DNA of 64,000 nucleotides from an uncultured Lentisphaeria bacterium (GTDB lineage Bacteria; Verrucomicrobiota; Lentisphaeria; Victivallales; UBA1829): contig CASDPB010000047.1 in NCBI GenBank assembly GCA_949282305.1, positions 155,514 to 219,513 on the forward strand. Direction: 5' to 3'. Below the pieces are notes generated by a model. It was not told where the DNA came from, did no database searches, and was given only the letters and a program-made list of their open reading frames with translations. Position numbers and translations under genes: made by a program. Shown in pieces: positions 15,466 through 47,283 of this stretch. Position 1 is the first letter of the stretch, and the number at the start of each line of letters is the position of its first letter.

Positions 15466-17034
15466 TCACCTGTCGGACTCTGTTTCCCGGTCAACGATTG
15501 AGAACTGATCCAGTATGATCTCCTTCCGGTTGTTTCCCGGCGGAGTCAGCCAGACAACAACCCGTTTGGAATCATAAGGAGTAAAGACGCACCCCTTTTC
15601 CCCGATGTTGAAAAACATCTGCACCTCTCCCCAGCAGCGCAGATGAAGCAGTCCCCATTTATCCGGGAAAACACGCCCGTCCGCATTCGGCTCCGCTTTT
15701 TTTCTTTCAGTCACCACGCCGACGGCATCGCCATCTCTCAGAGCCGCCGGAACCACCTGCCGCATTCTTTCCAGTTGAAACAGGTTGCCGTCATCCAGTC
15801 TGGCGTTCACAGTGTAAATGGCACTCGTCAGTATCCAGAGCAATATTGCAGTCAGCAGAAGAGCCCATCTCCATTTCCTCCCGTTCCGGCACCAGTTCGC
15901 CAAAATAGGCAGGGCCGCGCAAAAGAGCAGCATCCCGACGGAAATCACGGCAATCAGATAGCGGTGAATGACTCTCTCCGGATAAACAATCGGATGAATG
16001 TTGAAAATAATATAGCAGTGGCACAGATACGCCCCCAGAAAAGCAACGGCAAGAAAACGTCTCCTCAGATCCCCGTGGCATATCAGCACAAACGCGGCAA
16101 TACATCCCAGCGCAACGGAAAGATTCTGCGGAATGAAACTGTAATATTTCCCGTCCCAGCGGAATTGACGCAGGAAGCTGAACAGATACTCCAGGACGGA
16201 AGGGGCTTCCGGCTGGTTCTCCACAATCAGATGCGTATGGCAGAGCAGCTCATAACGTCCCAGTCTGCAGCCGTAAATTCCGTTGAGAATCAGAGTCTCC
16301 AGTCCGATGCCGGCAATGCAGCAGAAGAAGAAAAGCAGCATCCCCGGTGTAAGATGAACTTTTTTCCAGCGGAAACAATATTTTTCTGCCGGAGCAAACG
16401 CCAGAAACAAAAATATCCCCGGCGCCCAGAAAAAGGAGGTTTCCTTACAGCCGTAGGCAATCACCAGACAGCCCCCCGCAACCGCCATCAGCCAGCTTTG
16501 CCGCTGTTTCCCGTCAATAAAACGCAAAGTCACCAGCAGCGTCAGCAAAATCCAGACCGTGGCGGGAACCATCGGCAGAAACTGCGTCCCCTCATGGATG
16601 ATGACCGGATAAAAAGCATACAGCAGGACGACAAGCGGCGCCATGGCTGCGCTGAGAATCCGCCGCGCCAGAAGAAAAAGCACGAGCCCTCCTGCGCAAT
16701 AGCATAAAATCGGATACAGATAATACAGATAAATGGAATAACCGAAAAGTTTGCAGAACGCAACAGCAGGCCAGATCAATCCCCAGCGCAGCAAATGATG
16801 ATCCGGCTGCAACGGCAGAAACGTCCCGTTCTCAAGAAATACGCGGATCAGGAACCACTTATGGATTGCATCCCCTGATTTTGCAATAAACTGCAGGTTG
16901 CAGACAATAACAAACAAAAGGAACAAAAAGACCCACAGGCACTGCCGTCCCACGGGAAGTTTTCCGAACTGATCCGCAGCAATAGAAACTCTCATTACAA
17001 GTTTTTCATAGCAATGAACGATTTTCTGTTTCAT
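15466..17034 (-). CDS. polytopic membrane protein, probable GT-C-type (ArnT/PMT-like) glycosyltransferase
   Basis: 522 aa with many hydrophobic segments over the first ~400 aa and a soluble C-terminal tail. The ATG overlaps the upstream stop (ATGA at 17031-17034). Family call rests on architecture and context, not a strong motif. Confidence 0.5.
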   Translation of the reverse strand: MKQKIVHCYEKLVMRVSIAADQFGKLPVGRQCLWVFLFLLFVIVCNLQFIAKSGDAIHKWFLIRVFLENGTFLPLQPDHHLLRWGLIWPAVAFCKLFGYSIYLYYLYPILCYCAGGLVLFLLARRILSAAMAPLVVLLYAFYPVIIHEGTQFLPMVPATVWILLTLLVTLRFIDGKQRQSWLMAVAGGCLVIAYGCKETSFFWAPGIFLFLAFAPAEKYCFRWKKVHLTPGMLLFFFCCIAGIGLETLILNGIYGCRLGRYELLCHTHLIVENQPEAPSVLEYLFSFLRQFRWDGKYYSFIPQNLSVALGCIAAFVLICHGDLRRRFLAVAFLGAYLCHCYIIFNIHPIVYPERVIHRYLIAVISVGMLLFCAALPILANWCRNGRKWRWALLLTAILLWILTSAIYTVNARLDDGNLFQLERMRQVVPAALRDGDAVGVVTERKKAEPNADGRVFPDKWGLLHLRCWGEVQMFFNIGEKGCVFTPYDSKRVVVWLTPPGNNRKEIILDQFSIVDRETESDR

Positions 17035-18974
17035 ACCATATCCATTTCTTTTTTTATCTGGAGTTTTTCTTTGAATTTGACAATACTGTCAGCCAGGCGG
17101 GCAGAATCTCCGCGCGGACAGAAAATAATTTCCTCCGGATTCGCCTTAAAGAGCTCATGATTTGCCGGTGTATCTCCTAGAATGACAGGTTTCTTCATAG
17201 CTCTGTAAATATATGCTTTTCCCGGAATAGTGCGTGCAGCTTTCCTTATTTCCGCATTGAAATGTCCGGCAAGACAGAGGTCTGCACGTGAAATCTCAAA
17301 GGCAAGTTCCCGTTGACTTAGATAATCAAAAATAACAGCATTTGCAGAGGCAAGCCGTTTCTTCTGCATCTCCTTCAAAGGTCCAATAAGGATAAAACGA
17401 ATATCTGTTCTCTTTTTCAGAAGCAATATCGCATCAATAATCACTTCCACACCTTGAAGGGGTAAAATTGAGCCGAAATAAAGAACATTCAGTATTTTTC
17501 CGTCATAATCATATTTCGGATAAAGTGCCGGATCATAATAGGTTCTGTCAGCCTCAAGATACAGAACTTTAATCTTATTCTTGTCCGCCTTGAGAAATTT
17601 GATAAAATAACGACTGTGCGCCCTGGTATCGCAAATTATCTCATCGGCAAGGCGCAACGTGAGAACATCCAGACGATAAAGCAGATGTGCCGCCGGAGAT
17701 CTCCTCCGAAATATCTTGCGATCAGAAATAAAGGTATCATAAAGTGAAATGAAGAAGTCAATCGTAATCTTTTTGTGTCTAAACTTCCAATACCAGAAAG
17801 GCAGCACAAGCTGTGGTGAAAAACCACAGAAGAAATGATCAATTTTTCCCGCGGAAGTAAATAATAAATGCCAGTAGACATAAATCAGCCTCGCAAAATA
17901 ACTTCTGCCTGAACTTGCAATCCGGCTTACCCGCCGTCCACTGCTGTTCAATAATTTTATCTCCTGGGTATTGCGCAGATAATCACGATTTTTAGTGGAC
18001 ACAAAAAGAACTCTTTCGGATGAAGCATCTTGCCCCGGTGAACAATCGGTTTTGAATAAAATCTGTGTCATTCGCAATATCTTGATTCCAATAAAGGCAA
18101 ATACCTCACCGACAATCGTCCAGCATCTCGCTGCAACAAGCAATACGATCAACTGTGCCGCTTCCAGTGCTCCTGTTCCGAAAAACTGCAATACATATTC
18201 TCTTACTCCCAGCCCATTCGGTGTCGGACTTAAGAACCCAGCCACCCAGGCAACCGGATAGGCGACCCCAAGACGCGCCGCCGCCCCGAAGCTGGTATCT
18301 CCTATCGAAATGCAAAGCACTGCAAGCCCCATGCCGACACTGAACCACATTAAGATATATCCGACAAACAAGCCATAGACCGCAGTATTGCTCAACGAAT
18401 ATTCTGACTGGGATTTAAAAAGCCGGCAGAGCAACTTAAATCCCAGTCGGATAAAAAAAGGCAGAAATGCAAACGCTGAAATGCCGCAAGCAAAAACCGC
18501 AACTCCAGCAATGGCTGAATTCTTGAAAATGAACGGCAGAAAAAACAGCAGAAAGAAAAGTGATGACATAATCTGAAATAGATATTCAACGCAAATCGCT
18601 CCGGATGTCCGGCAGGGAGATGCTCCGCGCTTTATGCACCATACAGCCTTGCCGACAATATTCCAGATACCACCGGGAATGTAACGGGCAAATGCACTGG
18701 TAATGAAAATATCAATATAATCCAGCTTACTGATGTTTTCTTTTCTGTCATACTGTATATACATCCACAAGTATGCCATAAAAATAAAAGAAACACCATA
18801 CATCAGCGAGGCAGCAAGAAACAGAGCAATTCTGATATTCTTTACTGATTGCGACAGTTCCTGATATGAACCGGAAAAATTCCGATACACAAAATAAAAC
18901 ATGACAATGGCAAGAAACAACCCCAAAAGACGTAAAACTGTCTTTAACGGAAACTTGGATTCTTTGCGAATCAT
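17031..18974 (-). CDS. fusion protein: flippase-like TM domain (LPG_synthase_TM/UPF0104 type) + C-terminal GT4-type glycosyltransferase
   Basis: 647 aa. The N-terminal ~300 aa are polytopic, with FARYIPGGIWNIVGKA and SPTPNGLGVREY motifs seen in the MprF-like flippase-type domain. The C-terminal half has a GT1/GT4-like pattern (YFGSILPLQGVEVIIDA...IPGKAYIYRAMKKPVILGD). ATGA overlaps at both ends. Confidence 0.65.
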   Translation of the reverse strand: MIRKESKFPLKTVLRLLGLFLAIVMFYFVYRNFSGSYQELSQSVKNIRIALFLAASLMYGVSFIFMAYLWMYIQYDRKENISKLDYIDIFITSAFARYIPGGIWNIVGKAVWCIKRGASPCRTSGAICVEYLFQIMSSLFFLLFFLPFIFKNSAIAGVAVFACGISAFAFLPFFIRLGFKLLCRLFKSQSEYSLSNTAVYGLFVGYILMWFSVGMGLAVLCISIGDTSFGAAARLGVAYPVAWVAGFLSPTPNGLGVREYVLQFFGTGALEAAQLIVLLVAARCWTIVGEVFAFIGIKILRMTQILFKTDCSPGQDASSERVLFVSTKNRDYLRNTQEIKLLNSSGRRVSRIASSGRSYFARLIYVYWHLLFTSAGKIDHFFCGFSPQLVLPFWYWKFRHKKITIDFFISLYDTFISDRKIFRRRSPAAHLLYRLDVLTLRLADEIICDTRAHSRYFIKFLKADKNKIKVLYLEADRTYYDPALYPKYDYDGKILNVLYFGSILPLQGVEVIIDAILLLKKRTDIRFILIGPLKEMQKKRLASANAVIFDYLSQRELAFEISRADLCLAGHFNAEIRKAARTIPGKAYIYRAMKKPVILGDTPANHELFKANPEEIIFCPRGDSARLADSIVKFKEKLQIKKEMDMV

Positions 18975-19957
18975 TTTTCTTCTCCGTCAAACAGCTTTGC
19001 CCTTCTCATTGTATATTGTATGTCTTCAAGCATCATCCGATTGACAGCAAGCAGGTCGGCGACAAAAGCAATCATCCCGGCAATCACCCCAGTCAGCAGA
19101 AAAAGTGCCGCTAAAAGCAAAGATTGTATTTTTCCACTTCCAGCACCCTGAAAAAAATACCAGAGGAAACGGCAACCAAGAATGGAACCAATGCAGAAAC
19201 AACCAATCCCCAGGGTCATGAAAAAGCGGAACGGATAATAAAGAATCGCAATGCGGATCATGGTGAAAGCGGAACGCTTGATATATTGCGGAATGCTTTT
19301 CACCAGCCGAGATGGACGAAGATCCTCATTGACATGAATCGGCACGCACAGAATTCCAAGATTCTTGTAACCAGCCTGAATGATTGTCTCCAGCGTGTAG
19401 GTATAATTATTGAAGACATTCATCCGCAAGGCAGCCTCCCGGGAAAGAGCCCGGAATCCGCTGGGAGCGTCCTCCACCACCGTGCCGGAAAATTTCCGCA
19501 CCATGAAACTTCCGAATTTCTGAAGCATCTTCTTGAGCGGCGAAAAATGCCGGATCTCCGAAATCGGACGGGTTCCAATCACATACTGCGCCTTTCCGTC
19601 CAGAATCGGCTGTGTCAGCAGGGGAATATCACGCGCATCATATTGATTGTCCGCATCCGTATTGACGATCACATCCGCATCCGCCGACAGAGCCGCATGA
19701 AGCCCGCTCATGAATGCCCGCGCCAGACCGAGATTCGCATGATGCCGGACAATATGCTCCACTCCGCACGCCGCCGCCACCTCCGCCGTATTATCAGTCG
19801 AACCGTCATCAATCACCAGAAATTCCACCTTTTGAAAACCGGGCACTTCACGCGGCAGCTCCCGGATTGCCAGCGCCAGTGTCTCAGCTTCATTATAACA
19901 TGGAATCTGGATCACCAGTTTCCGCTCATGTCGCATAATATATTTTATGTTATTCAT
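18971..19957 (-). CDS. GT2 glycosyltransferase, polyprenyl-phosphate sugar synthase type (DPM1/ArnC/GtrB-like)
   Basis: 328 aa from ATG 19957 (GGGAG SD; ORF open to 20041). Motifs QIPCYNEAETL, VIDDGSTDNT and NTDADNQY, plus C-terminal TM helices. Confidence 0.85.
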   Translation of the reverse strand: MNNIKYIMRHERKLVIQIPCYNEAETLALAIRELPREVPGFQKVEFLVIDDGSTDNTAEVAAACGVEHIVRHHANLGLARAFMSGLHAALSADADVIVNTDADNQYDARDIPLLTQPILDGKAQYVIGTRPISEIRHFSPLKKMLQKFGSFMVRKFSGTVVEDAPSGFRALSREAALRMNVFNNYTYTLETIIQAGYKNLGILCVPIHVNEDLRPSRLVKSIPQYIKRSAFTMIRIAILYYPFRFFMTLGIGCFCIGSILGCRFLWYFFQGAGSGKIQSLLLAALFLLTGVIAGMIAFVADLLAVNRMMLEDIQYTMRRAKLFDGEEK

Positions 19958-20164
19958 CAAAAACTCCCTGCCGGAATAATAACTTTTAACACCACCTTCA
20001 ACATCAGACAAACCCAGGTATTTCCACTCAAAATACACCACATAAAATATATTATGCGAACTTAAATTCAGCCTCAGCCGACACTTGGAAACAGCCTGCA
20101 GTTAATAAAAATATTACAGAAAATAATTTTTTCAAGCAACGAGCAGTTTTTTATAAAAAGATAT

Positions 20165-32245: not shown

Positions 32246-32923
32246 TCATATCAGCATGCCATCTTTCAGTTCTACCGTCCGGTCCGCCAGCCCCGCCACA
32301 TACTTGTCATGTGTAACCATGACAATCGTCACTCCGCCCTCCGAGCGCAATTCATGAAAAATATCGAGGATTCCCTGCCCCGTCACCGAATCCAGATTCC
32401 CGGTCGGTTCATCCGCGAGAAGCAGTTCCGGCGAATTCATCAGGGAACGTGCAATCGCCGCGCGTTGCTGTTCACCGCCGGACAGTTCGTTCGCCCGGTG
32501 TTTGACACGATGCGCCAGCCCCACACGTCCGAGCAGGGCAAGCGCTTTTTCACGTGCCTCTCCTTTCGACATGCCGTCCAGCATCGACGGAAGCATCACG
32601 TTCTCGCAGATATTGAGTTCAGGCAGCATGTGGTATGCCTGAAAGACAAAACCGATCTTATGCCGCCGGAAGGTTACGGTTTCCCGCGCAGAAAGCGCAA
32701 GCACGTCCACCCCGCCGATCAGCAGACTGCCGGAATCGGGATGGGAAATCGTCCCCATGATATCCAGCAGAGTTGTCTTCCCGCTTCCGGAGGATCCCAG
32801 AAGCGCCACCCACTCGCCCTGCTCCACAGTCAGGGAAACGCTTTTCAGCACCTCCACCTTGTGAGAGCTTATTTTGAAAGACTTCGATATATTTTCCGCA
32901 TTCAGATAAATCATTTCTGCCAC
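32246..32923 (-). CDS. lolD: ABC transporter ATP-binding protein, LolD-type
   Basis: 225 aa. Walker [18 protein letters not shown], Walker [13 protein letters not shown]. Follows an FtsX/LolCE-type permease. Confidence 0.8.
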
Positions 32924-32932
32924 TCCTGCAAC

Positions 32933-34228
32933 TCACTCATAACGCAATGCTTTTGACGGATCCAGTTTGGCGGCGCGCAGTGCGGGAATCACTCCGCCGA
33001 AAGTGCAGAGGAGAACGGAAATCACTCCAATCCACAACAGGTCGGTCATAATAATACGGGCGGGAAGTTCGTCAAAGAGATAAATCTCCTGCGGGAAAAT
33101 CTCCTGTCCCGTCACAAAACGAAGCGCGCGCAAAATACTCATCCGGTAGATTACAACCAGTGCTCCGAGAATAATCCCGGAGGCAGTGCCGATCACTCCG
33201 ACATAAAATCCCTGCAGAATAAAAATGCGCATTACCGTTCCGGAACTCGCGCCCATTGCTTTCAGAAGCCCGATCTCGCGCGTCTTCTGGATCACCTGCG
33301 TAATGAGTGTGTTTGTAATGCTGAACGCGGCGACAAGCACAATAAAAACCAGCAGGAAAAACTGCATGTTCTTTTCCACGGCAAGCACTCCCAGAATCCG
33401 CCCGTTGATCTCCTGCCAGGACTCGATGAAATAAAGCGGTGCCTGTTCCTTCAGGCTCTTTTCCATTTTCGCCATAAAATCATCCATATGGAACGGATCG
33501 TCGGTCCAGACGTAAACCGCCGTTGCCGTTCCCCAGTCAAGCGAGAAAAGTTCATCGGCATCATCCAGATTCATGAAAATGAAATCGCGGTCGAAATCAT
33601 ATTTTCGGAAATTGGAAATCCCGGTAATTGTGAATTCGGACGGCAGATAAAGTTCGGAGTCCTTCGTCAATTCGATTCTGCCGTCTTTCCCTTTCCTGAA
33701 CAGTTTTGCAATGTTCGTCGAGGAATGGATCAGGATTTTGTCCCCGACATTCAATCCGAGTTCGCGCGCAATCACATAACTGACAATCACCTCTCCGCGC
33801 TTCAGGGAATATTCTCCGGCGAAAACAACCTCATCCACCCGCAGCTTGTTCGAGGTCTGCGCCGGATCGAATCCGATCACGACCTTCGGAACAAATGTAT
33901 CGTTCTTCTGCATCAGCACCGGAGCGATCACCGTCGGAAGAGCCTCGCCCCCCGCCTCTTTCACAAGATTCACAACGCGGTCAGGCTCGTCAATCACCAT
34001 CGAACGGAATTTGGGACGAATCTGCGCGTGCGAAGTCGTATCAAGAAGTTTCTCGCGCATCTTATCGGAAAAACCGCTCATGACTGCCAGCACAACGATC
34101 AGGACGGCAACGCCGAGCGCCACACCGACCACGGAAATCAAGGTTATGACAGAAACGGCGCTGCGTTTCGGTTTGAAGTATTTCCACGACAGGAAAAATT
34201 CTGTTCTGATTTTCATTCTTTTCTGCAC
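32933..34228 (-). CDS. lipoprotein-releasing system permease, LolC/E family (FtsX fold)
   Basis: 431 aa. N-terminal FFLSWKYFKPKR, a large periplasmic loop, and three C-terminal TM helices with GLLKAMGAS. Confidence 0.75.
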   Translation of the reverse strand: MQKRMKIRTEFFLSWKYFKPKRSAVSVITLISVVGVALGVAVLIVVLAVMSGFSDKMREKLLDTTSHAQIRPKFRSMVIDEPDRVVNLVKEAGGEALPTVIAPVLMQKNDTFVPKVVIGFDPAQTSNKLRVDEVVFAGEYSLKRGEVIVSYVIARELGLNVGDKILIHSSTNIAKLFRKGKDGRIELTKDSELYLPSEFTITGISNFRKYDFDRDFIFMNLDDADELFSLDWGTATAVYVWTDDPFHMDDFMAKMEKSLKEQAPLYFIESWQEINGRILGVLAVEKNMQFFLLVFIVLVAAFSITNTLITQVIQKTREIGLLKAMGASSGTVMRIFILQGFYVGVIGTASGIILGALVVIYRMSILRALRFVTGQEIFPQEIYLFDELPARIIMTDLLWIGVISVLLCTFGGVIPALRAAKLDPSKALRYE

Positions 34229-36680: not shown

Positions 36681-38468
36681 CTATTCCGCTTTCCTGTTTT
36701 CCAAAGGCAGCTGGATATAAAAATCGCTGCCCTTTCCGGGTTCGCTGACAAGACCCGGTTTGCCGCCGTGAAGCAATGCCACATGTTTCACGATCGCCAG
36801 TCCAAGTCCCGTCCCCCCGAGTTTACGGCTCCTCGCCTTATCCACACGGTAGAAACGCTCGAACACCCGTTCCTGATGCTCCTTTGCGATCCCGATTCCA
36901 TGGTCAAGCACATCAATGCGGAACAGATTGCTGCCGCTTCGCTTCATCGTAACTTTGACGTCGGAACCCTCATTGCTGTATTTGATCGCATTGTCGATCA
37001 GATTGATGACCGCCTGTTCCAGGAGCTGGGCGTCGGCGCGGATCATCACATTATCCACGACATCAAGATTCAGCTTGATGTTTTTCGCCTCGGCGCGCGG
37101 ACGGCAAAGTTCCACGGCTTCGCGCACGGCTCCCTCCACCGAAATTTCCGGCATTTCCTCGGTGGAGCTCAAACGCTTGTGCTCCAGATTGGAAAGGCTC
37201 AGAATGTCCTGAACCAGCGCATTCAGCCGCGTGGCCTGCTGGGTGATAATCTTCATGAAACGACTCTGCGCCTCTTTGTCATCTCCGACGTTCTCCAGAG
37301 TTTCGACAGCGGCAATGATTGAGGTCAGCGGCGTCTTGATCTCATGCGTGACATCGGCGATGAAATCACGACGGAACTCCTCCAGTTTGCGGATCACGGT
37401 AATGTCCGTAATGACGAGAAGCACGCCGGGCTTGCGTTTTTCACCGAGATTCAAACGGCCGGCGCGAGCGATGAAACTGCGTTCGCCGTCCGGCATGTTG
37501 AGTGTCAGCTCCGACTCAAAAACACCGTCGGAATTCTTCGCGTCCTCAGCCAGTTTGATTAATTCGCGACTGCCTACAATCGCCGCAAAGGAAAGCCGGT
37601 TTCCATCGGAGGAGAAGTTGAACATCGCCTCCGCTGCCTTGTTCCAGCGCTTGATGATCCCGTTGCCTTTCACGAGGATCACTCCCTCCGTCATGCTGGA
37701 CAAAATCGCATCGCGCTCATTTTTTTCACGTGTGATCTTCGCCAGTTTCGCTTTGAGCTCCTCGCTCATGGAGTTCAGGGCAATCGCAAGGCTCCGTATC
37801 TCCCCGTTGTTCGGGACAGGCAGGCTCACGTCAAAATCACCTTGCGCGACCCGGTCCGCGGCACGGCGCAGTTCCTCCAGAGGATGCGTGATCAGCCGGA
37901 ACAGATAAAAAGCAAGTCCCGCGGCAACCAGAGCGCCGATGATCCCGGCGAGAAGAATCGTGCGGAACGCCTGTTTCAGAAGGACGCCGAGCCGTGCGGC
38001 TCCGACCGCCGTCCGGATGCAATAGGTCTTTCCATTCACCACGACCGGCATGGCATAGTAGGACATATAAGTTCCGAGCGTGCTGCTGTACCGGGTTGCT
38101 CCCGCGGCTTTCCCCTCCAGCGCGGAGGCGACTTCAGGGCGTTCCAGATGGTTTTCCATGAAATGGGGATCATTTTTCGAATCGGCAAGAATTTTACCCT
38201 TGTCATCAATCACAGTAACGCGGGTGTCCATTTTTTCCGAGATTTTTCTGCAGTATGCGCGCAGTTTGTCGAGATCCCCTTTTCCGATATATTCCGCAAC
38301 GGTGTCGCTCATCAGGAAATCACGCGCGGCGAGATTGTTGCGAACCGTCTCAAAATAACCGTCCTCCAGATTCGCTGCCTGCTTGTAAACGGCGAACAGC
38401 AGAAGCACAATCGCCAGCAGAAGAATCAGAGGAAGATAAATGAAGAGTTTGAAGTTGAACGTTTTCAT
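36681..38468 (-). CDS. phoR: phosphate-regulon sensor histidine kinase
   Basis: 595 aa. Two TM helices flank a periplasmic domain, then HAMP and PAS-like regions. H-box FIADVTHEIKTPLTS and G2 box GGTGLGLAIVKH. Sits directly downstream of phoB. Confidence 0.8.
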   Translation of the reverse strand: MKTFNFKLFIYLPLILLLAIVLLLFAVYKQAANLEDGYFETVRNNLAARDFLMSDTVAEYIGKGDLDKLRAYCRKISEKMDTRVTVIDDKGKILADSKNDPHFMENHLERPEVASALEGKAAGATRYSSTLGTYMSYYAMPVVVNGKTYCIRTAVGAARLGVLLKQAFRTILLAGIIGALVAAGLAFYLFRLITHPLEELRRAADRVAQGDFDVSLPVPNNGEIRSLAIALNSMSEELKAKLAKITREKNERDAILSSMTEGVILVKGNGIIKRWNKAAEAMFNFSSDGNRLSFAAIVGSRELIKLAEDAKNSDGVFESELTLNMPDGERSFIARAGRLNLGEKRKPGVLLVITDITVIRKLEEFRRDFIADVTHEIKTPLTSIIAAVETLENVGDDKEAQSRFMKIITQQATRLNALVQDILSLSNLEHKRLSSTEEMPEISVEGAVREAVELCRPRAEAKNIKLNLDVVDNVMIRADAQLLEQAVINLIDNAIKYSNEGSDVKVTMKRSGSNLFRIDVLDHGIGIAKEHQERVFERFYRVDKARSRKLGGTGLGLAIVKHVALLHGGKPGLVSEPGKGSDFYIQLPLENRKAE

Positions 38469-38471
38469 GTT

Positions 38472-39179
38472 TTACGGCTCCTGAGAGAAACGGTATCCGA
38501 TTCCGCGGACAGTTTCGATCAATTCTCCATATTCCCCCATTTTGCGGCGGAGTCCGACAATCTGCACGTCGATGGCGCGTTCCGTCACGGGATAATCGTC
38601 GCCGCGGATCGCGTTCACGATCTGATTGCGGGTAAACACCCAGCCGGGGCGTTTCGCCAGATGATAAAGGATATTGAATTCGGAACAGGTAAGGTCAAGT
38701 TCCTGCCCGTTCAACATCGCGGAACGGCGCGCCGCATTCATGTGCAGGGGACCGCGGGAAAGCTCCTTTTCATCCTCCGACGTCTCCTCCAGGGCGGCAA
38801 TGCGACGAAGAACCGCGCGGATGCGCGCCGTCAGGATTTTCGGGCTGAACGGTTTCGTGATATAGTCGTCCGCGCCGAGCTCCAGCCCGATCACGACATC
38901 GCTTTCTTCACTTTTCGCGGTCAGCATGATGACCGGAATATTCTTTGTGACAGGATCCGCCTTCAGATTCCTGCAGACCGTCAGCCCGTCCACTCCGGGA
39001 AGCATCAGGTCAAGCAGAATCAGATCCGGCTTGTAAGTGGCCGCGCTTTCCAGTGCGGATTCGCCGTTTTCGCAGCAGACAGGCACCTGATATCCCTCTC
39101 TCTGCAAATTGTACTTGATCAATTCCTGAATGGATTCCTCATCCTCGACGATCATGATTCTTTCTTTGCTCATCGGCAA
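38472..39179 (-). CDS. phoB: phosphate-regulon response regulator (OmpR/PhoB family)
   Basis: 235 aa. Receiver IMIVEDEESI...DLILLDLMLPGVDG, winged-helix C-terminus IETVRGIGYRF. Confidence 0.9.
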   Translation of the reverse strand: MPMSKERIMIVEDEESIQELIKYNLQREGYQVPVCCENGESALESAATYKPDLILLDLMLPGVDGLTVCRNLKADPVTKNIPVIMLTAKSEESDVVIGLELGADDYITKPFSPKILTARIRAVLRRIAALEETSEDEKELSRGPLHMNAARRSAMLNGQELDLTCSEFNILYHLAKRPGWVFTRNQIVNAIRGDDYPVTERAIDVQIVGLRRKMGEYGELIETVRGIGYRFSQEP

Positions 39180-39230: not shown

Positions 39231-39938
39231 TCAAAGTTCTTTTTCAACTACGGAAGAATGTTCTCCGCCGCCGGAAAAGCGGGAATAGGCATGACGCACG
39301 ATGCGCCCCGACTCCAGATAGATCACATCCTCGGCGATGTTCGTGGTGCAGTCCGCAATCCGTTCCAGACTCCGCGAAACGCCGAGCAGCGCCTGATAGG
39401 CGGCGACATGTTCCGGATCAGTCCGGACACGTTCGGGAAAATGTTCCGAATAACGTTCATGCAGCTCGTCAATCACATCATCCCCCATGATGACCTCCGT
39501 GGCGAGCGGGACATTGTGGCTGGAAAGCGCCTTGATCGAAGAATCCAGCATCCTGCGCACGGAAGCGGTCATGGCTTCAAAATCGACCGGAAGCGGCGGC
39601 ACGACGGAATCAGGCTTCGACTCCGTTGTAAACTCCGCAATGTCCACGGCAAGATCGCCGATGCGTTCCAGCTCGCCATTGACCTTCAGAACAGTGATAA
39701 TGTAACGGAGATCCCCCGCGACGGGCTGATAAAGGGCAAGCAGCTTGAGGCACTCTTCCTCGATCATGATTTCATTCCGGTCGATGTCTTCGTCTTTTTC
39801 AACGGTTTTCGCGGCAGCCTGCACATTGCCGTTCAAGAACGCCTTGACCACATTTCCCAGCATTTCGGCAACATCCACAGCCTGAGAGTAAAGTTTCTGG
39901 TCCAGAGCGCGAATCTCTTTGTAAAGATGTGTTTTCAT
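39231..39938 (-). CDS. phoU: phosphate signalling modulator PhoU
   Basis: 235 aa. Duplicated PhoU repeats, each containing an ERI(G/A)D motif. Confidence 0.9.
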   Translation of the reverse strand: MKTHLYKEIRALDQKLYSQAVDVAEMLGNVVKAFLNGNVQAAAKTVEKDEDIDRNEIMIEEECLKLLALYQPVAGDLRYIITVLKVNGELERIGDLAVDIAEFTTESKPDSVVPPLPVDFEAMTASVRRMLDSSIKALSSHNVPLATEVIMGDDVIDELHERYSEHFPERVRTDPEHVAAYQALLGVSRSLERIADCTTNIAEDVIYLESGRIVRHAYSRFSGGGEHSSVVEKEL

Positions 39939-39958: not shown

Positions 39959-40738
39959 TCAGCCGAAACGTCCGGTGATGTATTCTTCCGTTTTCTTATT
40001 GGATGGATTGGTAAAAATCTTCGCCGTCGTGTCATGTTCTATGATGCGCCCTTTGTAGAAAAAGGCGGTGTAGTCCGAAATTCGCGATGCCTGCTGCATG
40101 TTGTGCGTGACGATCACGATGGTGAACCTCTGGCGCAGTTTCAGGAGCAGTTCCTCGATTTTCAGCGTGGCGACGGGGTCGATTGCGGAGGTCGGTTCGT
40201 CGAGCAGAAGAATATCCGGCTCGGCGGCAATCGTACGCGCAATGCAGAGACGCTGCTGCTGTCCTCCGGAAAGTGCCAGTCCGCTGCCGTTGAGTTTGTC
40301 CTTGACTTCATCCCAGAGGGATGCGCCGCGCAGAGCCGTTTCCACCCGTTCGGCGATCTCGCTTTTTCTGAGCTTGAAGTGAAGCCGCATTCCGTAGGCA
40401 ACATTGTCGAACACGGACATCGGGAACGGGGTCGGACGCTGGAAGATCATACCGACTTTGCGCCGCAGTTCCAGCACATCGACATTGCGGTCAAGAATGT
40501 TCTGTCCGTCGATGACGACCTCGCCTTCGACGCGCTGTTCGCGGTAAAGTTCAAAGATGCGGTTGTAAATTCTCAGATGAGTGGATTTTCCGCATCCGGA
40601 GGGCCCGATCACAGCGGTGATGCGGTTTTCCGGGATTTCCAGATTGTTGTCAAACAGCGACTGGTGGTCTCCGTAAAAGAAATTGAGGTTCTTCGCGGCG
40701 ATTTTGATTTTCGGTTTTTCTTCGTTTTGAATGGTCAT
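39959..40738 (-). CDS. pstB: phosphate ABC transporter ATP-binding protein
   Basis: 259 aa from ATG 40738 (ORF open to 40780). [10 protein letters not shown], Walker [23 protein letters not shown]. Confidence 0.95.
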
Positions 40739-40739
40739 G

Positions 40740-41612
40740 TCAAGCATTTTTCTTCTCCCTGCAGATGTAACGGAGGACAATGTTCATCAGCAGCAATGTT
40801 ATCGTAATCAGGAATGCGGCGCCCCATCCCATCGCGTGCATCTCTTCGCTCGGAGAGTTGGTGGCGTATTCGTTGATGAGGACAGGCAGATTCGCGGTCG
40901 GCTGTGTGAAATAATGCCACGGCCAGGCATCGCTCCAAAGCGCCGTAAACAGAAGGGGAGCAGTCTCCCCGGCGGTTCGGGCGACGGCAAGCAGGATGCT
41001 CGTCACGAGCCCGCCTTTGATGGACCGGCAGACAATGCACAGAACGGAACGTGCGCGCGTCATGCCCAGAGCGAGGGAAGACTCATGAACAGCCGCAGGC
41101 ACCATCAGGATCATATCCTCCGTCGTGCGCATGACAACCGGAAACATGATGATCGCAAGGGAGAGCGATCCGGCAAGCCCCGAACGATGCCCGGTCGTGA
41201 CAACCAGCAGCGCATATACAAACACACCTGCGAGAATGGAAGGCAGCCCCATCATCACGTTGACGGAAAACCGGATCAGATTGCCGAGCTTGCTGTTCTG
41301 TCCGTAAATGGCAAGCCCGATTCCCCCGGCAAATGCGGCAGGCACTCCGATCAGAACCGCCATCAAGGTAATGAAAATGGTTCCGAGGATCGCGTTTCCG
41401 ACTCCGTTGTCAGGCTCGCCCGCAGGTTTGCTCCCGCAGAAAATAAAATCCAGACTGATCACCCCCGCGCCGTTTCTGATGACCGACCAGAGAATCCACA
41501 ACATGCAGAAAACCGCAAGCGCGACGCCCGCCACGGAAAGAAGCCACATCACCGAGTTCAGAAGTTTCCGGAAGAACATCGGGCGTCTGGCGACAGTAGT
41601 TGTCTCACTCAT
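40740..41612 (-). CDS. pstA: phosphate ABC transporter permease PstA
   Basis: 290 aa, polytopic. EAA-like loop [16 protein letters not shown] overlap with pstC. Confidence 0.9.
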
Positions 41613-42544
41613 TTTTCACCTCTCTTTCTGTCCATATTCTTCAGGTAAAGCTGCGCGACGGCCTGGACAGAGAGGGACAGCAGCATCAGGATCAGCCCGA
41701 GTGCGAAAAGAACACTGCGGAGAAGACCGTCCGCCTCATTGAAATTGTTTGCAAGAGTCGCGGCAATCGTGGTTCCGCTCCCGAACAGGGAAGTCGGGAG
41801 TTCCGCAATGCCGCCGATCACGAACAGGACCGCCATCGTTTCCCCGAGGGCGCGTCCGAGTCCGATAAACACTGCGCCGAAAATCCCGCGGATGCCATAG
41901 CGCAGAATGATGTGCGAAGCCACCTCCCACGAGGTACAGCCAATCCCGTAGGCGGCTTCCTGAAGCGGAGCGGGAGTCATGCGGAACACATCGCGCATGA
42001 CGGCGCAGATATAAGGAAGAATCATCAGGGCGAGGATGAGTCCGGCGGTCAGGAAGCCGAACCCGTTGTAATCCTCGCCGAAGAATGGAACTTTCCCGAG
42101 GTAAAGCGTATCAGCCAGAAACGGCTGGATGTAATCCTGCATGACGGGAGCCAGGACAAAGAGTCCCCACATACCGTAAATGATGCTGGGAATCGCCGCC
42201 AGCAGATCCAGCGCCTGGCTCAGCGGATACCCGAGCCATTTCGGCGCGTTCACGAGAAACAGCGCCGTGATGAAGCCCAGCGGGGCGGCGATGCCCACCG
42301 CAATCACCGTTGTCACCAGCGTTCCGGTGATCGCGGGAAGCGCCCCGTAAAGCTGCTGGACGGGATCCCACTGCGTTGACAGGATGAATTTGAAACCGAA
42401 TGTCCGGAATGCCTCGACCGAGTTGCCCCCCAGCAGGATAAAGAATCCGGCCGCAACCACCAGCGGGATGAAGGTGCACAGGAGCGTCAGGATCATGAAC
42501 ATCCGGTCCCGGATATTTTCTTTCTTTCCGAACTGATAAAACAT
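41609..42544 (-). CDS. pstC: phosphate ABC transporter permease PstC
   Basis: 311 aa, polytopic. QEAAYGIGCTSWE loop. Position between pstS and pstA. Confidence 0.9.
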   Translation of the reverse strand: MFYQFGKKENIRDRMFMILTLLCTFIPLVVAAGFFILLGGNSVEAFRTFGFKFILSTQWDPVQQLYGALPAITGTLVTTVIAVGIAAPLGFITALFLVNAPKWLGYPLSQALDLLAAIPSIIYGMWGLFVLAPVMQDYIQPFLADTLYLGKVPFFGEDYNGFGFLTAGLILALMILPYICAVMRDVFRMTPAPLQEAAYGIGCTSWEVASHIILRYGIRGIFGAVFIGLGRALGETMAVLFVIGGIAELPTSLFGSGTTIAATLANNFNEADGLLRSVLFALGLILMLLSLSVQAVAQLYLKNMDRKRGEK

Positions 42545-42563: not shown

Positions 42564-43598
42564 TTAAAGTGCGTTTTTCTGCCCGTTGACGGTGATCTCG
42601 TTTTTCCAGTAATCGCCGATCATTTTGACCACATTTTCGGGCATCGGGACATAGTGCATCTTCGCGGCGGAGGCGCGCCCGCTCGTGAAGCACCAGTTGA
42701 AATATTTAAGCATCGCTCTGGCGGCGTCGGCATTTTTCTGGTCGCGATGAATCAGAATGTAGGTGACGCCGACAATCGGCCAGCTGTCCGCGCCGGGCTG
42801 ATCGGTCAGCATCTGGTAAAAGCCCTGATCGGCTTTCCAGTCGGCATGGGCGGCAGCAGCGGAAAACGCTTCGCTGTCCGCCGTGACGAATTTTCCGTCT
42901 TTGTTTTTCAGGGAGGCAACCGGAAGTTTGTATTCCGTTGCAAACGTGTATTCCGTATAGCCGATCGCGCCGCGGCTCTTTCTGACCATATTGCAGACGC
43001 CGGGGTTCTTGCTTCCGCCGATACCCGCGGGCCACTTCACGTCAGAGCCTGCGCCGACCTTGTCCGCCCATTCCTTGGAAATCTTGGCAAGATAATCCGT
43101 AAAGATATAGGTTGTTCCGGAGCTGTCGGTTCTGTGCACAACGGTGATTTTGAGTTTCGGCAGACGGAGCCCCGGATTCAGAGCCGCAATGCGCGGATCG
43201 CTCCAATTCTTGATCTTCCCGAGGAAAATATCGGCAAGAACCGCCTGATCCAGCTTCAGCTGATTCGTTTTGACACCCGGCAGATTGTAAATCAGAACCA
43301 CGCCGCCGCTGAGCATCGGGAACTGAAGAAGCCCGGATTTGTTGAGCTCGTCGATTTTGAGCGGTTTGTCGGTTCCGCCGAAGTTTGCAGTCGCCGACTT
43401 GATCTGATTGATTCCGGCTCCGGAACCGAGAGGCTGATAATTCACGCGAACGTCCTTGTTGACATTGCTGAATCCGTAAGTCCAGACCCGATACACCGGC
43501 GCGGGGAACGACGCCCCGACTCCATTGATCGTGAGGTCTGCGGCGGAGACACTCAGTGCAAGAGCCCCGGCCAGTACAGCGAGAGTTTGTTTCAACAT
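42564..43598 (-). CDS. pstS: periplasmic phosphate-binding protein
   Basis: 344 aa from ATG 43598 (AAGGAG SD; ORF open to 43631). Signal peptide MLKQTLAVLAGALALSVSA. GVGASFPAPVY motif. Confidence 0.9.
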   Translation of the reverse strand: MLKQTLAVLAGALALSVSAADLTINGVGASFPAPVYRVWTYGFSNVNKDVRVNYQPLGSGAGINQIKSATANFGGTDKPLKIDELNKSGLLQFPMLSGGVVLIYNLPGVKTNQLKLDQAVLADIFLGKIKNWSDPRIAALNPGLRLPKLKITVVHRTDSSGTTYIFTDYLAKISKEWADKVGAGSDVKWPAGIGGSKNPGVCNMVRKSRGAIGYTEYTFATEYKLPVASLKNKDGKFVTADSEAFSAAAAHADWKADQGFYQMLTDQPGADSWPIVGVTYILIHRDQKNADAARAMLKYFNWCFTSGRASAAKMHYVPMPENVVKMIGDYWKNEITVNGQKNAL

Positions 43599-43620
43599 AC
43601 CATTTTCTCCTTTTTTCAAT

Positions 43621-43689
43621 TTTCCGGGCATCTCCCGGAAAACCTGTTTTGTTGATTTATTTCAAGCGGGGCAGATTCCGCCGCCCCGC
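43621..43689 (-). other. two stem-loops in the 100-nt secretin-pstS spacer (possible partial terminator / processing or attenuation site)
   Basis: GC stem gcggggc/gccccgc (43666-43672 / 43683-43689) begins 10 nt after the secretin TAA. A second 8-bp stem tttccggg/cccggaaa (43621-43628 / 43634-43641) lies about 20 nt before the pstS SD. Neither has a strong minus-strand U-tract. Confidence 0.4.
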
Positions 43690-43698
43690 CCTTTTTCT

Positions 43699-45585
43699 TT
43701 AATATGTGTCCAAATCCAGTTTCTTTCCGGAATCGAATCCCCATTGTCCATAGCCGTAGGAATTGCTGTTTCCGGCATCTTTGGTCGCATCGCGGATGAC
43801 CTGAATATCGGAATTGATGTTTTCCGGAAGCGCGCTGTCGGGACGGACACTTTCGCATTCCGCCACTACGACCAGCTGCGATTTCTTTGTGGATTCGCTT
43901 TCCGTCGAAAACGCCCAGCCGATCAGCGGAATGTCCTTGAGAATCGGAATACCGCCCTGCCCTCTCACGACATCCAGTTTCTCAATGCCGCCGATCACGA
44001 AACGGTTGTTCCTGTTGCCGATCATGATACGGGTCGTCAGAGGCTCCAGCTGTGACTGCCGCGGCGTGCCGTCGGAAAGATACCCCATCAGCGTATTCGA
44101 TGTGATGGAAACGTCCAGAATCGTGGCATTCGCCGTAATGGAAGGCGTCACATCCATCCTGAACTGATAGCCGTTGGAGATTCCTTCCTCAATCTTGAAT
44201 CCGCTGTCGGAAAGAACATTTTCCTCTTCGCCCCACGTGATTCCCTGCACGCTGTCCGAAACCACGACTTTCTTCCCGTATTCCTGCCCGTTCTTGTAGA
44301 AGCGGGCCCCGTTGTGCGCCGTCAGTGTCACACGGACATCGCCGTTGGCGTCGGTTGTCTTCGCCGCCCCGACCACAGCATTTGCGGGGACGACCGCAAC
44401 CGCCGTTCCGCCCATGTCGATCATGTTCGTAACCGGCGTCACAGTGCCGTTTTCACTGTAGTTGCTGCCGAGCTGCATCTTGAACGCCGGATCAATCTGA
44501 TCGCCCTGTTTGGCATAGACGATTCCGGTGTTCCTCACAAGAGAGCCCTTTTTATTGTTGCGGACGGAAAGTTCTCCGGTGTAGGCGACTTTGCCTTTTC
44601 CCCTGGAGACAAGGAAGTCAAGATAACGGGTATTCCACTTCGGATTGAAATTGAAATACTGGGAATTGTTGGAACCGGCGCCGCGCTGAAGTCCGCCGCC
44701 GAAAGCCGCAGACCAGTTGTCGCGGTATCTCGCGCCCGTGCTGAAGAAATCCGCGCCGTCATTGTTCTTCCATGCCTGGAAGTCGGCGCCGAGGCGTCCG
44801 TCGTTTTCCGCGTAAATTTCATAAATCATATATTTCACGCGGACTTCCGGATGCGGGATGTCGTAAAGTTTCAGCATGTCCTCGATATTCTTGCGGGAGT
44901 AGAGAGCGGTGCTGAAGAAGAGACAGTTCAGTCCGCCGTCCACGGCGACTTTGTCCTTGCCGCCGATCAGTTCCACCGTGTCGTCGGAAACGTTTGCACC
45001 GACATTTTTGATCATCGTCTCAAGTTCACTCGCCGGACGGTTCGCGGGGAAATAGATGAATTTCGGCTGACCGGACGAGTTTCTGATGCCGGGCTTGTCC
45101 AGATGGGCAACGATGGAATCAATCCCCATGCCGTTCGGACTGTCTTTGAAACGGTATTCCTCGGCGGAGATGATGACCGCCCCGGTGCCGTCGGCAAACT
45201 TGACGCACTCAACTCCGGAGGGAATCGCAATATCGTTCTTGGTGCGATAGATGTTGTAATAGTTGTGCGGCTGGTTCGGATCTTCCCCGTCCTTGTAGTT
45301 TACGCGCAGCGCCTGGACCATTTCACGCAGATACGGGCGAATCTCATAGGCGTCGGCGTGCTTCAGGAGATAAGTTTTCGTAATGATTTTCGGATCGTTG
45401 GTATCGCGGATGAAATGAACCATTTCGGTGCCTTCCCTGATGTTCAGGCGGAGCTGAGCCTGCACCATGGACGGAGAATACGCGGGATTTGCATTGCCGG
45501 TCGGCATTTCATTGGCAAGAAGTGTCGAACCGCAGAGTGCGAGAAATGCCGTGACAGCCGATCTTTTCATATTTTTTCTTTTCAT
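43699..45585 (-). CDS. secretin-family outer-membrane protein (paralog B)
   Basis: 628 aa. Signal peptide MKRKNMKRSAVTAFLALCGSTLLA. N-domain-like KTYLLKHADAYEIRPYL. C-terminal secretin signature GGIPILKDIPLIGWAFSTESESTKKSQLVVVAECE. Confidence 0.8.
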   Translation of the reverse strand: MKRKNMKRSAVTAFLALCGSTLLANEMPTGNANPAYSPSMVQAQLRLNIREGTEMVHFIRDTNDPKIITKTYLLKHADAYEIRPYLREMVQALRVNYKDGEDPNQPHNYYNIYRTKNDIAIPSGVECVKFADGTGAVIISAEEYRFKDSPNGMGIDSIVAHLDKPGIRNSSGQPKFIYFPANRPASELETMIKNVGANVSDDTVELIGGKDKVAVDGGLNCLFFSTALYSRKNIEDMLKLYDIPHPEVRVKYMIYEIYAENDGRLGADFQAWKNNDGADFFSTGARYRDNWSAAFGGGLQRGAGSNNSQYFNFNPKWNTRYLDFLVSRGKGKVAYTGELSVRNNKKGSLVRNTGIVYAKQGDQIDPAFKMQLGSNYSENGTVTPVTNMIDMGGTAVAVVPANAVVGAAKTTDANGDVRVTLTAHNGARFYKNGQEYGKKVVVSDSVQGITWGEEENVLSDSGFKIEEGISNGYQFRMDVTPSITANATILDVSITSNTLMGYLSDGTPRQSQLEPLTTRIMIGNRNNRFVIGGIEKLDVVRGQGGIPILKDIPLIGWAFSTESESTKKSQLVVVAECESVRPDSALPENINSDIQVIRDATKDAGNSNSYGYGQWGFDSGKKLDLDTY

Positions 45586-45604
45586 AATCGCTCAATCTCC
45601 TCTG

Positions 45605-47095
45605 TTATTTCTTCGCCGGGACAAGATCCGTCAGAGAGGTCATGCGGCCGGAGAGCTCCGCAATGTCCGCATCAGGATGGATGAACTCGGCGGTGACGGT
45701 CAGGAAAAAATGGGTCTTGTCAATATTTTTCGTGGTATAGCCGAAAATATATTTCAGCACCGGAAGTTCGCAGAGGAACGGAATGCCGATCGTCTGCTCC
45801 ACTTCGGAATCCTTCGTCCACGAGGTCAGCAGCTTTTCATGGTTGACTGCCATCGTCACATAAGAGTCGACGCTGCTGGACTCCGTCAGCTCTTCACCGT
45901 AGTTGTTCCGTTCCACAACCTGCGAAGAATTCAGCAGATAATTGAAATTGACGTTGCCGCCGAATTTTCTGCTGTAATCCTCCTTTGTAAAAGGCAGGAG
46001 CCCGTCTTTGTCCGGCTTGACGGAATTGAAGCAGATCACCGGATTGGAAATCGTAACGGAAAATTCAGGCATGGAGGAACGGATAAACGTCTTGTCGTTC
46101 TCCTCGCCGTCCTTCACCAGATTCTGGTATTCCGGCGTGAAAGCGAGCTCGTAGCTTCCGCCCTCGTTATTGGTGATCGTGAGGCTGCCGCTGCCCGCAA
46201 GCGTTGCTTTCCCGTTCTGCTGCAGAAGACGGATGAAGCTCATGTCAAAGGCAGGCGCCACAAAAAAACCGCCGTAGGAATAGGAAAACGCGCCGGCAGC
46301 GGAGGGAGCCGCCTGGAGCAGCGTCTGAATCAGCGCCTCATTCAATTTCAGACTTGTCAAATCGAATCCGGCAGCCATGAGATCCATGCCGGGACCGTTT
46401 TTCCATGCCAGATAGTCAACGCCGAGATCACGCATCGTACTTTCGCGGATTTCGTAAATATGGAATGTCAGGTTGACCTGCGGAAGCGGGCGGTCCAGCC
46501 AGCCGATGTATTTGATCAGGTCGCGCGTCTTGTTGCCGGAATCCTTCCAGTAGATCAGGTTTGTGGCTTCGTCGTATTGAACGACCGCGTCCTGCTTCCG
46601 GTCGCTCGTCGCATTGGAGGGAATTCCCGTGTCGCTCATGATATCCACAATCTCCTGACTGGAGCGGAACTTCGGCGTATAGACGTAACGCTGAATCCCG
46701 GTTCCGTCAAGAAGAGAACCGAACGGTCCGCGTTTCGCCGATGGACGGTCCAGCTTGGCGACCATGTCATCCACGTAAGGCATCATTTTCACGCCGGTGG
46801 TGACAACGATCATCTGTTTTGCCGAATAGTTGATGCGGTCAACCGTGGAGTTTGAGGAGTAACGCTTCACGGCGCCAAGGACAAACGGCACCAGATCGTT
46901 CGCCTTGAGATGCTTCAGATCATAGACCTTGCTGACCATATAGTTCTGGGCATCGTCCTCCTTGAATCTGATTTTCTGGACTTTGTCCGGTGCTGGCTCT
47001 TTCGTTTCAGAAGCGGGGTCGAAAGCTGCCGCGTCCATCGCGCACAGCAGTCCGCAGGCACCGCCAAGACTGACTCGAAACCATTTGTCATTCAT
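45605..47095 (-). CDS. secretin-family outer-membrane protein (paralog A)
   Basis: 496 aa from ATG 47095 (AAGGAG SD; ORF opens at TTG 47149). Signal-like MNDKWFRVSLGGACGLLCAMDAAA. N-domain-like SKVYDLKHLKANDLVPFV. C-terminal IGIPFLCELPVLKYIFGYTTKNIDKTHFFLTVTAEF. Confidence 0.75.
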   Translation of the reverse strand: MNDKWFRVSLGGACGLLCAMDAAAFDPASETKEPAPDKVQKIRFKEDDAQNYMVSKVYDLKHLKANDLVPFVLGAVKRYSSNSTVDRINYSAKQMIVVTTGVKMMPYVDDMVAKLDRPSAKRGPFGSLLDGTGIQRYVYTPKFRSSQEIVDIMSDTGIPSNATSDRKQDAVVQYDEATNLIYWKDSGNKTRDLIKYIGWLDRPLPQVNLTFHIYEIRESTMRDLGVDYLAWKNGPGMDLMAAGFDLTSLKLNEALIQTLLQAAPSAAGAFSYSYGGFFVAPAFDMSFIRLLQQNGKATLAGSGSLTITNNEGGSYELAFTPEYQNLVKDGEENDKTFIRSSMPEFSVTISNPVICFNSVKPDKDGLLPFTKEDYSRKFGGNVNFNYLLNSSQVVERNNYGEELTESSSVDSYVTMAVNHEKLLTSWTKDSEVEQTIGIPFLCELPVLKYIFGYTTKNIDKTHFFLTVTAEFIHPDADIAELSGRMTSLTDLVPAKK

Positions 47096-47164: not shown

Positions 47165-47204
47165 AAATTAGCCTCGGGTAAAGTGCTTGTTAAAGTTTCG
47201 TTAA
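47165..47204 (-). promoter_or_regulatory. candidate secretin-operon promoter with a proximal pair of phased TTAACA-type repeats
   Basis: On the minus strand, TTAACG-aaact-TTAACA (47204-47188, 11-bp period). The second hexamer acts as the -35, followed by a 17-nt spacer and TAATTT (47170-47165). Confidence 0.4.
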
Positions 47205-47266
47205 CTTCTTTTCCGCATCTTTTTCTAACAATATACTGTCCGGAAATTCAGGATGAATTAAGAAAA

Positions 47267-47283
47267 TGTTAGACTTCTGTTAA
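47267..47283 (-). promoter_or_regulatory. distal pair of phased TTAACA-type repeats (Pho-box-like)
   Basis: On the minus strand, TTAACA-gaagt-CTAACA with an exact 11-bp period. Confidence 0.35.

Follow-up and report, generated by a model that had tools for sequence, protein, structure and literature searches.

Paired secretins adjoining phosphate and iron import genes in Lentisphaerota: a possible machine-independent outer-membrane channel

Introduction

What is the function of two adjacent secretin genes that stand at the head of a phosphate uptake locus? This question is raised by a 64,000-nt stretch of DNA from an uncultured Lentisphaeria bacterium (assembly GCA_949282305.1, contig CASDPB010000047.1, positions 155,514 to 219,513), in the following called the window, in which the genes for two secretins, A and B, directly precede a pst-pho locus on the minus strand. 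In textbooks, secretins are homo-oligomers that serve as exit gates, and, to our knowledge, each of them is tied to a type II secretion system (T2SS), a type III secretion system (T3SS), a type IV pilus (T4P) or a phage assembly machine. An original prediction, made from the sequence without database searches, had described the two open reading frames (ORFs) as an orphan secretin pair joined to the phosphate locus, possibly forming a hetero-oligomeric gate. The analysis presented here points, with a probability of about 45%, to A and B as a machine-independent, probably mixed secretin ring by which imported phosphate or Fe2+ would cross the outer membrane.

The gene pair and its secretin identity

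The predicted layout of the pair, with ORFs of 496 and 628 amino acids (aa) and gaps of 19 and 100 nt, was reproduced in full and comprises the following features:

45605..47095, minus strand: secretin A, 496 aa, with a signal peptide, two N-type ring domains (residues ~53-115 and 134-200) and a secretin domain (206-472)
Within the secretin domain of A: GATE1 hairpin with the canonical 18 aa
45586..45604, minus strand: A-B spacer, 19 nt, with a ribosome-binding site (GAGGAG)
43699..45585, minus strand: secretin B, 628 aa, with a signal peptide, two N-type domains and a secretin domain (247-580)
44173..44502, minus strand: GATE1 insertion of B, 110 aa (residues 362-471), hypervariable and predicted to be all-beta
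43599..43698, minus strand: B-pstS spacer, exactly 100 nt from the stop codon of B to the pstS ATG at 43598

Gene A starts with an ATG that is preceded by an AAAGGAG ribosome-binding site 7 nt upstream. A longer form starting at TTG 47149 is possible; public metagenomes contain identical contigs, on which both genes were called independently in the same way, with the 496-aa form of A. In secretin B, an N-terminal peptide of some 35 aa and the C-terminal tail (NSYGY.Q..D) are conserved as well.

Both proteins are secretins, as had been proposed. They score above the Pfam cut-off of 27.5 bits for the Secretin family PF00263 (A 29.2 bits, B 56.2 bits) and carry signal peptides of the signal peptidase I type, and all top matches of their AlphaFold models in a Foldseek search of the PDB are secretins, namely GspD, PulD, XcpQ, InvG, PilQ, pIV, RcpA, and BfpB, with best E values of 1.3e-18 for A and 6.9e-14 for B. 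The expected hidden Markov model (HMM) match to Secretin_N was not obtained, as both proteins stay below the cut-off of 28.2 bits (A 19.8, B 15.3), although two beta-alpha-beta-beta-alpha N-domains are predicted in each of them. All of these modelled N-domains have the topology of N1/N3 ring domains. The underlying monomer models have mean predicted local distance difference test (pLDDT) values of 69.6 for A (alignment of 61 sequences) and 66.6 for B (49 sequences). The two proteins share 21% identity, in agreement with the notion that they are no recent duplicates. Porin families, including Porin_O_P, were not matched by A or B in Pfam and NCBIfam scans at E values up to 1.

Within the secretin superfamily, A and B do not show the features that define the GspD, PilQ, and HofQ families. 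Their scores reach 47.1 and 49.3 bits for TIGR02517 (GspD; cut-off 351), 40 and 57 bits for TIGR02515 (PilQ; cut-off 284), and 24-27 bits for HofQ models (cut-offs 554-598); matches to the NCBIfam secretin subfamilies GspD, SctC, PilQ, MshL, HofQ, and Amuc_1098 are all 5- to 20-fold under the respective cut-off. The idea that A might be a liposecretin or pilotin-like protein was rejected, as a conserved lipobox is absent.

A further difference concerns the N0 domain, by which GspD, PilQ, InvG, and pIV contact their inner-membrane partners. No STN/N0 match was found in A or B with Pfam, and only 10-25 aa precede the first N-domain of mature A, leaving no room for an N0 domain. Because N0 is absent, the pair is argued to be autonomous from a machine.

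A lineage-specific family of secretin pairs

A scan of GTDB with one genome per species revealed 489 stretches encoding a relative of B, the best 80 of which were used as a set of loci (1.25 Mb; L-numbers in the following). Nearly all named stretches belong to Lentisphaerota. The nearest relatives (92% identity) are found in gut metagenome-assembled genomes (MAGs) labelled as Lentisphaeria or Victivallales, and more distant ones include Victivallis vadensis. A profile of family A searched against 1.84 billion representatives retrieved only 112 proteins at E<=1e-30, among them about 40 full-length clusters. Relatives are labelled 'hypothetical protein' or, automatically, 'GspD' in databases; A and B belong to a small, lineage-specific family without a curated name.

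According to family HMMs, A lies directly upstream of B on the same strand wherever the contig permits, which resulted in 77 pairs. The gap between both genes has a median of 18 nt and is at most 40 nt in 74 of the 77 pairs, several of which overlap. The pairwise distance matrices of A and B are correlated with r = 0.96, and the pairs are therefore considered to duplicate and diverge as units. Judged by gene order and co-variation, this is the pairing behaviour of two subunits of one complex, and this obligate adjacency and co-evolution make the suggested hetero-oligomer plausible. Separate pairs occur two or three times in several MAGs and at least twice in one Victivallis genome. In one MAG, two pairs form a direct A-B-A-B tandem (L079:34-6561), which looks like a whole pair caught in the act of duplication. 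A megablast search with the region gave no match to plasmids.

Linkage to phosphate and iron importers

In the window, A and B are the first two cistrons of the string A-B-pstS-pstC-pstA-pstB-phoU-phoB-phoR, which is encoded on one strand and continues behind B as follows:

42564..43598, minus strand: pstS, periplasmic phosphate-binding protein (PBP_like_2, 128.6 bits)
41609..42544, minus strand: pstC, permease
40740..41612, minus strand: pstA, permease
39959..40780, minus strand: pstB, ATPase
39231..39938, minus strand: phoU (the orthologue in L091 carries PF01895)
38472..39179, minus strand: PhoB-type response regulator of the OmpR/PhoB class (Response_reg and Trans_reg_C)
36681..38468, minus strand: PhoR-type sensor histidine kinase (the orthologue in L091 carries HisKA and HATPase_c)

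The linkage to pst that had been noticed in the window is a recurrent feature. Adjoining ORFs of all loci were clustered all against all, and pst genes were assigned by phmmer on all ORFs. Few neighbour families recur, and only two sets, pst (clusters 1, 2 and 5-8) and feo (feoA and feoB, clusters 13 and 25 with 5-6 loci each), keep a fixed position directly 3' of B. Other recurrent clusters, namely a prepilin-like family and a block of TIM, lipoprotein and PilM genes, occur without such a position. The start of pstS is located -77 to +331 nt after B in 20 of the 68 loci with enough downstream DNA, followed by pstC-pstA-pstB-phoU and usually by a regulator and a kinase. The same A-B-pst layout was called independently on a contig of 1.38 Mb. 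In a tree of B, one large clade, which includes the window, consists mostly of pst-linked pairs, and the adjacency was lost in a sister sub-clade; two distant branches, L028 and L053, are also linked to pst.

In 12 loci, which all belong to another clade, B is followed at a distance of 45-152 nt by the start of feoA and then by feoB, identified by Pfam (FeoA, 54 bits; FeoB_N, 187 bits). Pairs of the Feo type (L041) and of the Pst type (L081) coexist in one MAG. The same-strand linkage to both importers persists down to 40-50% protein identity. In two respects, these results change the original prediction. The pair is neither an orphan nor peculiar to the phosphate locus, as it belongs to a multi-copy, lineage-specific family of which other members stand alone. 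Furthermore, the proposed roles in the export of phosphatases or nucleases or in the uptake of DNA or polyphosphate are argued against by the association of a sister clade with feoAB. Given this linkage to feoAB, a general conduit for small-solute importers is favoured over phosphate-specific roles.

The 100-nt spacer between B and pstS can fold into two stable hairpins (dG -35 kcal/mol, z -4.1) without a U-tract, which are kept in L009 and L010 with base changes within the stems. These hairpins may serve to set the ratio of secretins to PstS, either as an attenuator or as an element for processing or stability. A sigma-70-like site was not found on the coding strand of this spacer. In several other secretin-linked pst operons, a small conserved ORF of 115-132 aa without a Pfam match is inserted between pstS and pstC (L053:4760-5158 and L091:12213-12560, also in L070, L074, L081, and L083); it is absent from the window.

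Pho-box-like arrays upstream of the pair

The tie of the pair to phosphate control that had been suspected from its location is further supported by repeat arrays, which have the same orientation as A and precede this gene by 70-190 nt:

47245..47283, minus strand: Pho-box-like array 1, TTAACA / CTAACA / TTAATT / TGAATT with an exact 11-bp period
47230..47235, minus strand: TATATT, located about 10 nt behind array 1 and, by its similarity to a -10 hexamer, a putative promoter element
47166..47204, minus strand: Pho-box-like array 2, TTAACG / TTAACA / TTTACC / CTAATT with an 11-bp period

The TTAAC core of these arrays resembles the Pho boxes of Bacillus and cyanobacteria. When arrays were defined as three TTAAC units with a period of 11, at most one mismatch each and at most two in total, these two were the only matches on both strands of the window, and none occurred in 30 composition-matched shuffles. 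The related loci contain eight arrays, seven of which are located within 130 nt upstream of an A gene; array 1 is kept in L009 and L010, and variants of array 2 are present in L011-L013. Operators of PhoP and PhoB are likewise known to consist of direct repeats with an 11-nt unit (PMC2275107, PMC4832192).

A position weight matrix (PWM) was trained on the window, L088, and L051 only and tested on the remaining loci against 138 intergenic controls of the same loci. With this held-out matrix, the upstream regions of pst-linked pairs (p = 4e-6) and of stand-alone pairs (p = 2e-7) differ from the controls, whereas those of Feo-linked pairs behave like them (p = 0.68). Neither a Fur-type box nor another shared motif was found upstream of the Feo-linked pairs. 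The spacer between B and pstS does not contain a Pho-box array (PWM score -6.6). The string A-B-pst-phoU-phoBR would thus be one Pho-controlled unit with a putative operator in front of the secretins. In Lentisphaerae bacterium WC36 (L032, CP085689, 4780-11842), genes for a PhoR/PhoB-like kinase and regulator are oriented divergently from a stand-alone A-B pair, and a repeat array with a score of 15.6 in the shared intergenic region suggests Pho control without adjacent pst genes.

Gate hairpins of A and B

Alignment of the B profile with the wild type and the G453A gate mutant of Vibrio GspD places the variable segment of B inside the GATE1 hairpin. This segment comprises 16-172 aa in B over the 77 pairs; that of A has 12-19 aa in 72 of them, and canonical GspD has 18 aa. 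The B insertion shows only 13-21% identity between clades, compared to 48-61% for the rest of the protein. In the window, the 110-aa insertion is modelled confidently as an all-beta segment (pLDDT ~90). A ring that alternates canonical gates with bulky, rebuilt ones would be expected to be permanently constricted and unable to open for folded proteins.

If the rings were to pass either phosphate or Fe2+, the chemistry of the lumen would be expected to differ between Pst-type and Feo-type pairs. In a comparison of what are essentially two clades without phylogenetic independence, Feo-type pairs are more negatively charged than Pst-type pairs in GATE1 of A (-2.7 vs -1.1), in GATE1 of B (-9.4 vs -2.7), and in the secretin domain of B (-10.2 vs +1.4). 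The gate hairpin of A keeps a KD(E/D)DH motif throughout the Feo clade, and a metal-coordinating function of this gate is possible from its sequence. The full motif, L-K-D-(E/D)-D-H-R-(T/S)-S-V-D-V-G-G-D-A-S with an invariant His (e.g. L035, L057, and L068), occupies the site of residues ~327-344 of A in the window and is kept even where feo is not seen beside the pair.

Absence of secretion machinery

Pfam annotation of the remaining genes of the window did not reveal genes for T2SS, T4P, Tad, T3SS or phage assembly, as had been stated before, and neither a pilMNOP nor a gspC-M context is present there; the other genes belong to ordinary metabolism, transport, and glycosylation. Across the 80 neighbourhoods, the search for machine genes yielded a lone PilT-like gene as the only ATPase of the T2SSE family, located 4.6 kb from the pair on the opposite strand, and a secreted substrate conserved beside the pairs was not found in any of these loci. 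A regular expression for the Walker A motif, used to find GspE/PilB candidates, gave two matches, this ATPase and an HrpA helicase, neither of which indicates a machine.

The pairs of the Victivallis clade (L006-L008, L025, L026, L040, and L046) and of L071 adjoin a conserved block resembling the T4P-like genes of Akkermansia. This block encodes a small lipoprotein, TIM, SecG, an Amuc_1102-like protein, PilM, an Amuc_1100-like protein, a 412-aa protein, and an 849-aa secretin. Thus, the Amuc_1098-1102-type T4P-like cluster of Victivallis carries a secretin of its own.

A putative inward channel for phosphate and Fe2+

An inward nutrient channel would work as follows. Phosphate limitation would induce the whole A-B-pst-phoBR string, and A and B would be made together, exported by Sec, and assembled into one mixed ring in the outer membrane. 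Lacking N0, this ring could work alone as a channel through which phosphate would reach the periplasmic PstS. With the canonical gate of A and the rebuilt, variable gate of B, it would offer a permanently constricted, solute-sized passage and no protein-sized gate. Paralogous pairs would serve Fe2+ ahead of FeoAB. The more specific proposal of a secretin-derived, machine-independent and hetero-oligomeric porin family, with pairs specialised for phosphate under Pho control or for Fe2+ and with GATE1 of B as constriction or selectivity element, is more doubtful and put forward tentatively.

Such a channel would do the job of the PhoE and OprP porins of Proteobacteria, which are Pho-regulated phosphate porins. 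Small solutes are able to enter cells with leaky mutants of the secretins pIV and PilQ. A dedicated outer-membrane protein for a ferrous iron importer has a precedent in FupA of Francisella, which functions in high-affinity Fe2+ uptake with FeoB (PMC3973589). The charge contrast between Pst-type and Feo-type gates fits the import prediction in its direction.

Several points weigh against an import function. We know of no secretin with a demonstrated function as a nutrient porin. The pores of secretins have the size of proteins, and leakiness makes them toxic. The evidence for a channel consists of genomic context and of monomer models of moderate confidence (pLDDT 67-70), and the likeness of the upstream arrays to PhoB-type operators is one of architecture and position. 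About half of the pairs have no adjoining importer and are stand-alone bicistrons in varied contexts. The charge contrast supports import only weakly because it separates essentially two clades and because the Pst-type gates lack the positive charge of OprP (about -1 for GATE1 of A). In addition, a TCDB survey reported some classical porin families, including OprD-type porins, for Lentisphaerae (PMC4827864). The argument that porins are missing from Lentisphaerae was dropped in view of the OprD-type and other porin families listed there.

Alternative explanations

In the main alternative to an entry route, starvation would induce the pair as another way out through the outer membrane, used by a T2SS- or T4P-like machine whose genes lie elsewhere. 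Under limitation of phosphate or, for the paralogues, of Fe, such an exit gate would release scavengers such as phosphatases, nucleases or iron-mobilising proteins. The secretin fold with its conserved C-terminal signature in A and B and the presence of Pho-box-like arrays agree with such a gate, as do the many prepilin-type proteins of these genomes; the prepilin-like N_methyl/DUF1559 family occurs in 12 loci, where its position is not fixed. Parallels exist in Pseudomonas with the Pho-regulated Hxc system and its secretin HxcQ, and with the orphan secretin XqhA. In Caulobacter, a phosphate-starvation lipoprotein is known to be released in dependence on a T2SS (PMC2996285). An exit gate is nevertheless unlikely, as the N0 domain for docking to GspC or PilP is absent and neither a machine gene nor a candidate substrate is conserved beside the pairs. 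The neighbours that keep their position are importers, and one of these, Feo, does not require a secreted factor. A rebuilt hairpin in B is also hard to reconcile with a gate that has to open for proteins, and the only T4P-like cluster seen nearby, that of Victivallis, is equipped with its own 849-aa secretin.

The same feo linkage is left unexplained by a HofQ- or PilQ-like import route for DNA, polyphosphate or organophosphates. Although the Pho-type regulation, the linkage to pst, and the weak NCBIfam similarity to HofQ and PilQ would suit the uptake of such polymeric or organic phosphorus sources, the respective scores (24-57 bits) are far from the cut-offs (284-598), and genes for a pilus, ComEA-like proteins or nucleases are not linked to the pairs, which makes this route highly improbable. 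The stand-alone bicistrons, many of which also carry repeat arrays, would agree with an envelope function of the pair apart from the linked nutrient, for instance as a structural or stress complex sharing starvation promoters. Alternatively, A and B might form two separate homo-oligomeric rings, as their co-assembly is deduced from pairing and co-evolution. Both options are quite unlikely given the tight same-strand linkage to two different importers and the clade-specific gate chemistry, which differs between the linkage types. An inward channel is therefore the preferred explanation for the pair.

Other loci of the lineage

A secretin is also encoded in an operon with an HlyD-type fusion protein, an ABC ATPase, and a MacB-type permease (L003:237-5309, minus strand; also in L004, L005, and related loci). 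The stop and start codons of this operon overlap, and its secretin is a canonical one of 512 aa (PF00263, 126.8 bits). It occupies the position expected for a TolC-like outer-membrane factor and represents a second secretin of this lineage that is associated with a transporter other than a T2SS. The window itself encodes a LolCDE/MacB-like pair (32246-34228, minus strand; ABC_tran and MacB_PCD/FtsX) without an adjoining adaptor or outer-membrane partner. At 15466-20041, a low-GC island with a dip across 16001-20000 (GC content 0.456-0.465 vs about 0.55 elsewhere) encodes a PMT_2 glycosyltransferase, a fusion of LPG_synthase_TM with GT1, and a GT2 enzyme. This island is probably a laterally acquired surface-glycan cassette.

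Significance and comparison with known systems

In the literature, no relevant description was found of paired or heteromeric secretins, of a linkage of secretins to pst or feo, of secretin-MacB systems or of import pores of the Planctomycetes-Verrucomicrobia-Chlamydiae (PVC) group, which is in line with the earlier statement that this arrangement had not been described before. The A/B family breaks three rules of secretins, as it consists of two obligate, co-evolving subunits, lacks the N0 domain and nearby machine genes, and shares operons with small-ion importers. If the pairs function in uptake as mixed rings, they would represent the first case of a heteromeric secretin and of a secretin with a physiological role in import. 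A phylum of the PVC group would then have solved outer-membrane permeation with a different scaffold, the functional range of secretins would be wider, and a defined route for phosphate and iron would be available for gut Lentisphaerota. Even as an exit gate, the pair would be the first heteromeric, starvation-switched secretin. As Victivallis vadensis is culturable, the question is directly testable.

Among known secretins, A and B resemble GspD, PulD, XcpQ, and HxcQ in the fold and signature of the secretin C-domain and in their ring domains of the N1/N3 type. HxcQ of Pseudomonas aeruginosa is a liposecretin that is regulated by phosphate starvation. In contrast to GspD and HxcQ, which form homo-oligomers of one subunit, A and B are two co-evolving paralogues without N0, are encoded outside a gsp or hxc operon, and have a rebuilt GATE1 in B. 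PilQ, HofQ, and Amuc_1098 belong to the same superfamily and give weak NCBIfam matches; compared to PilQ and HofQ, A and B lack an AMIN or N0 domain as well as pilMNOP. The phage secretin pIV (PDB 7OFH; Foldseek E values 5e-12 and 2e-9) is similar as a minimal secretin of comparable size with two N-domains only. It differs in being a phage-encoded homo-15-mer that docks to pI/pXI via N0, whereas the genes of A and B reside on the chromosome in linkage with importers and have been duplicated together. The porins PhoE of Escherichia coli and OprP/OprO of Pseudomonas and the FupA protein are classical beta-barrels without homology to A and B. Their likeness would be a functional one: under the proposed model, A and B would, like them, provide an entry route through the outer membrane that is co-regulated with Pst or works together with FeoB.

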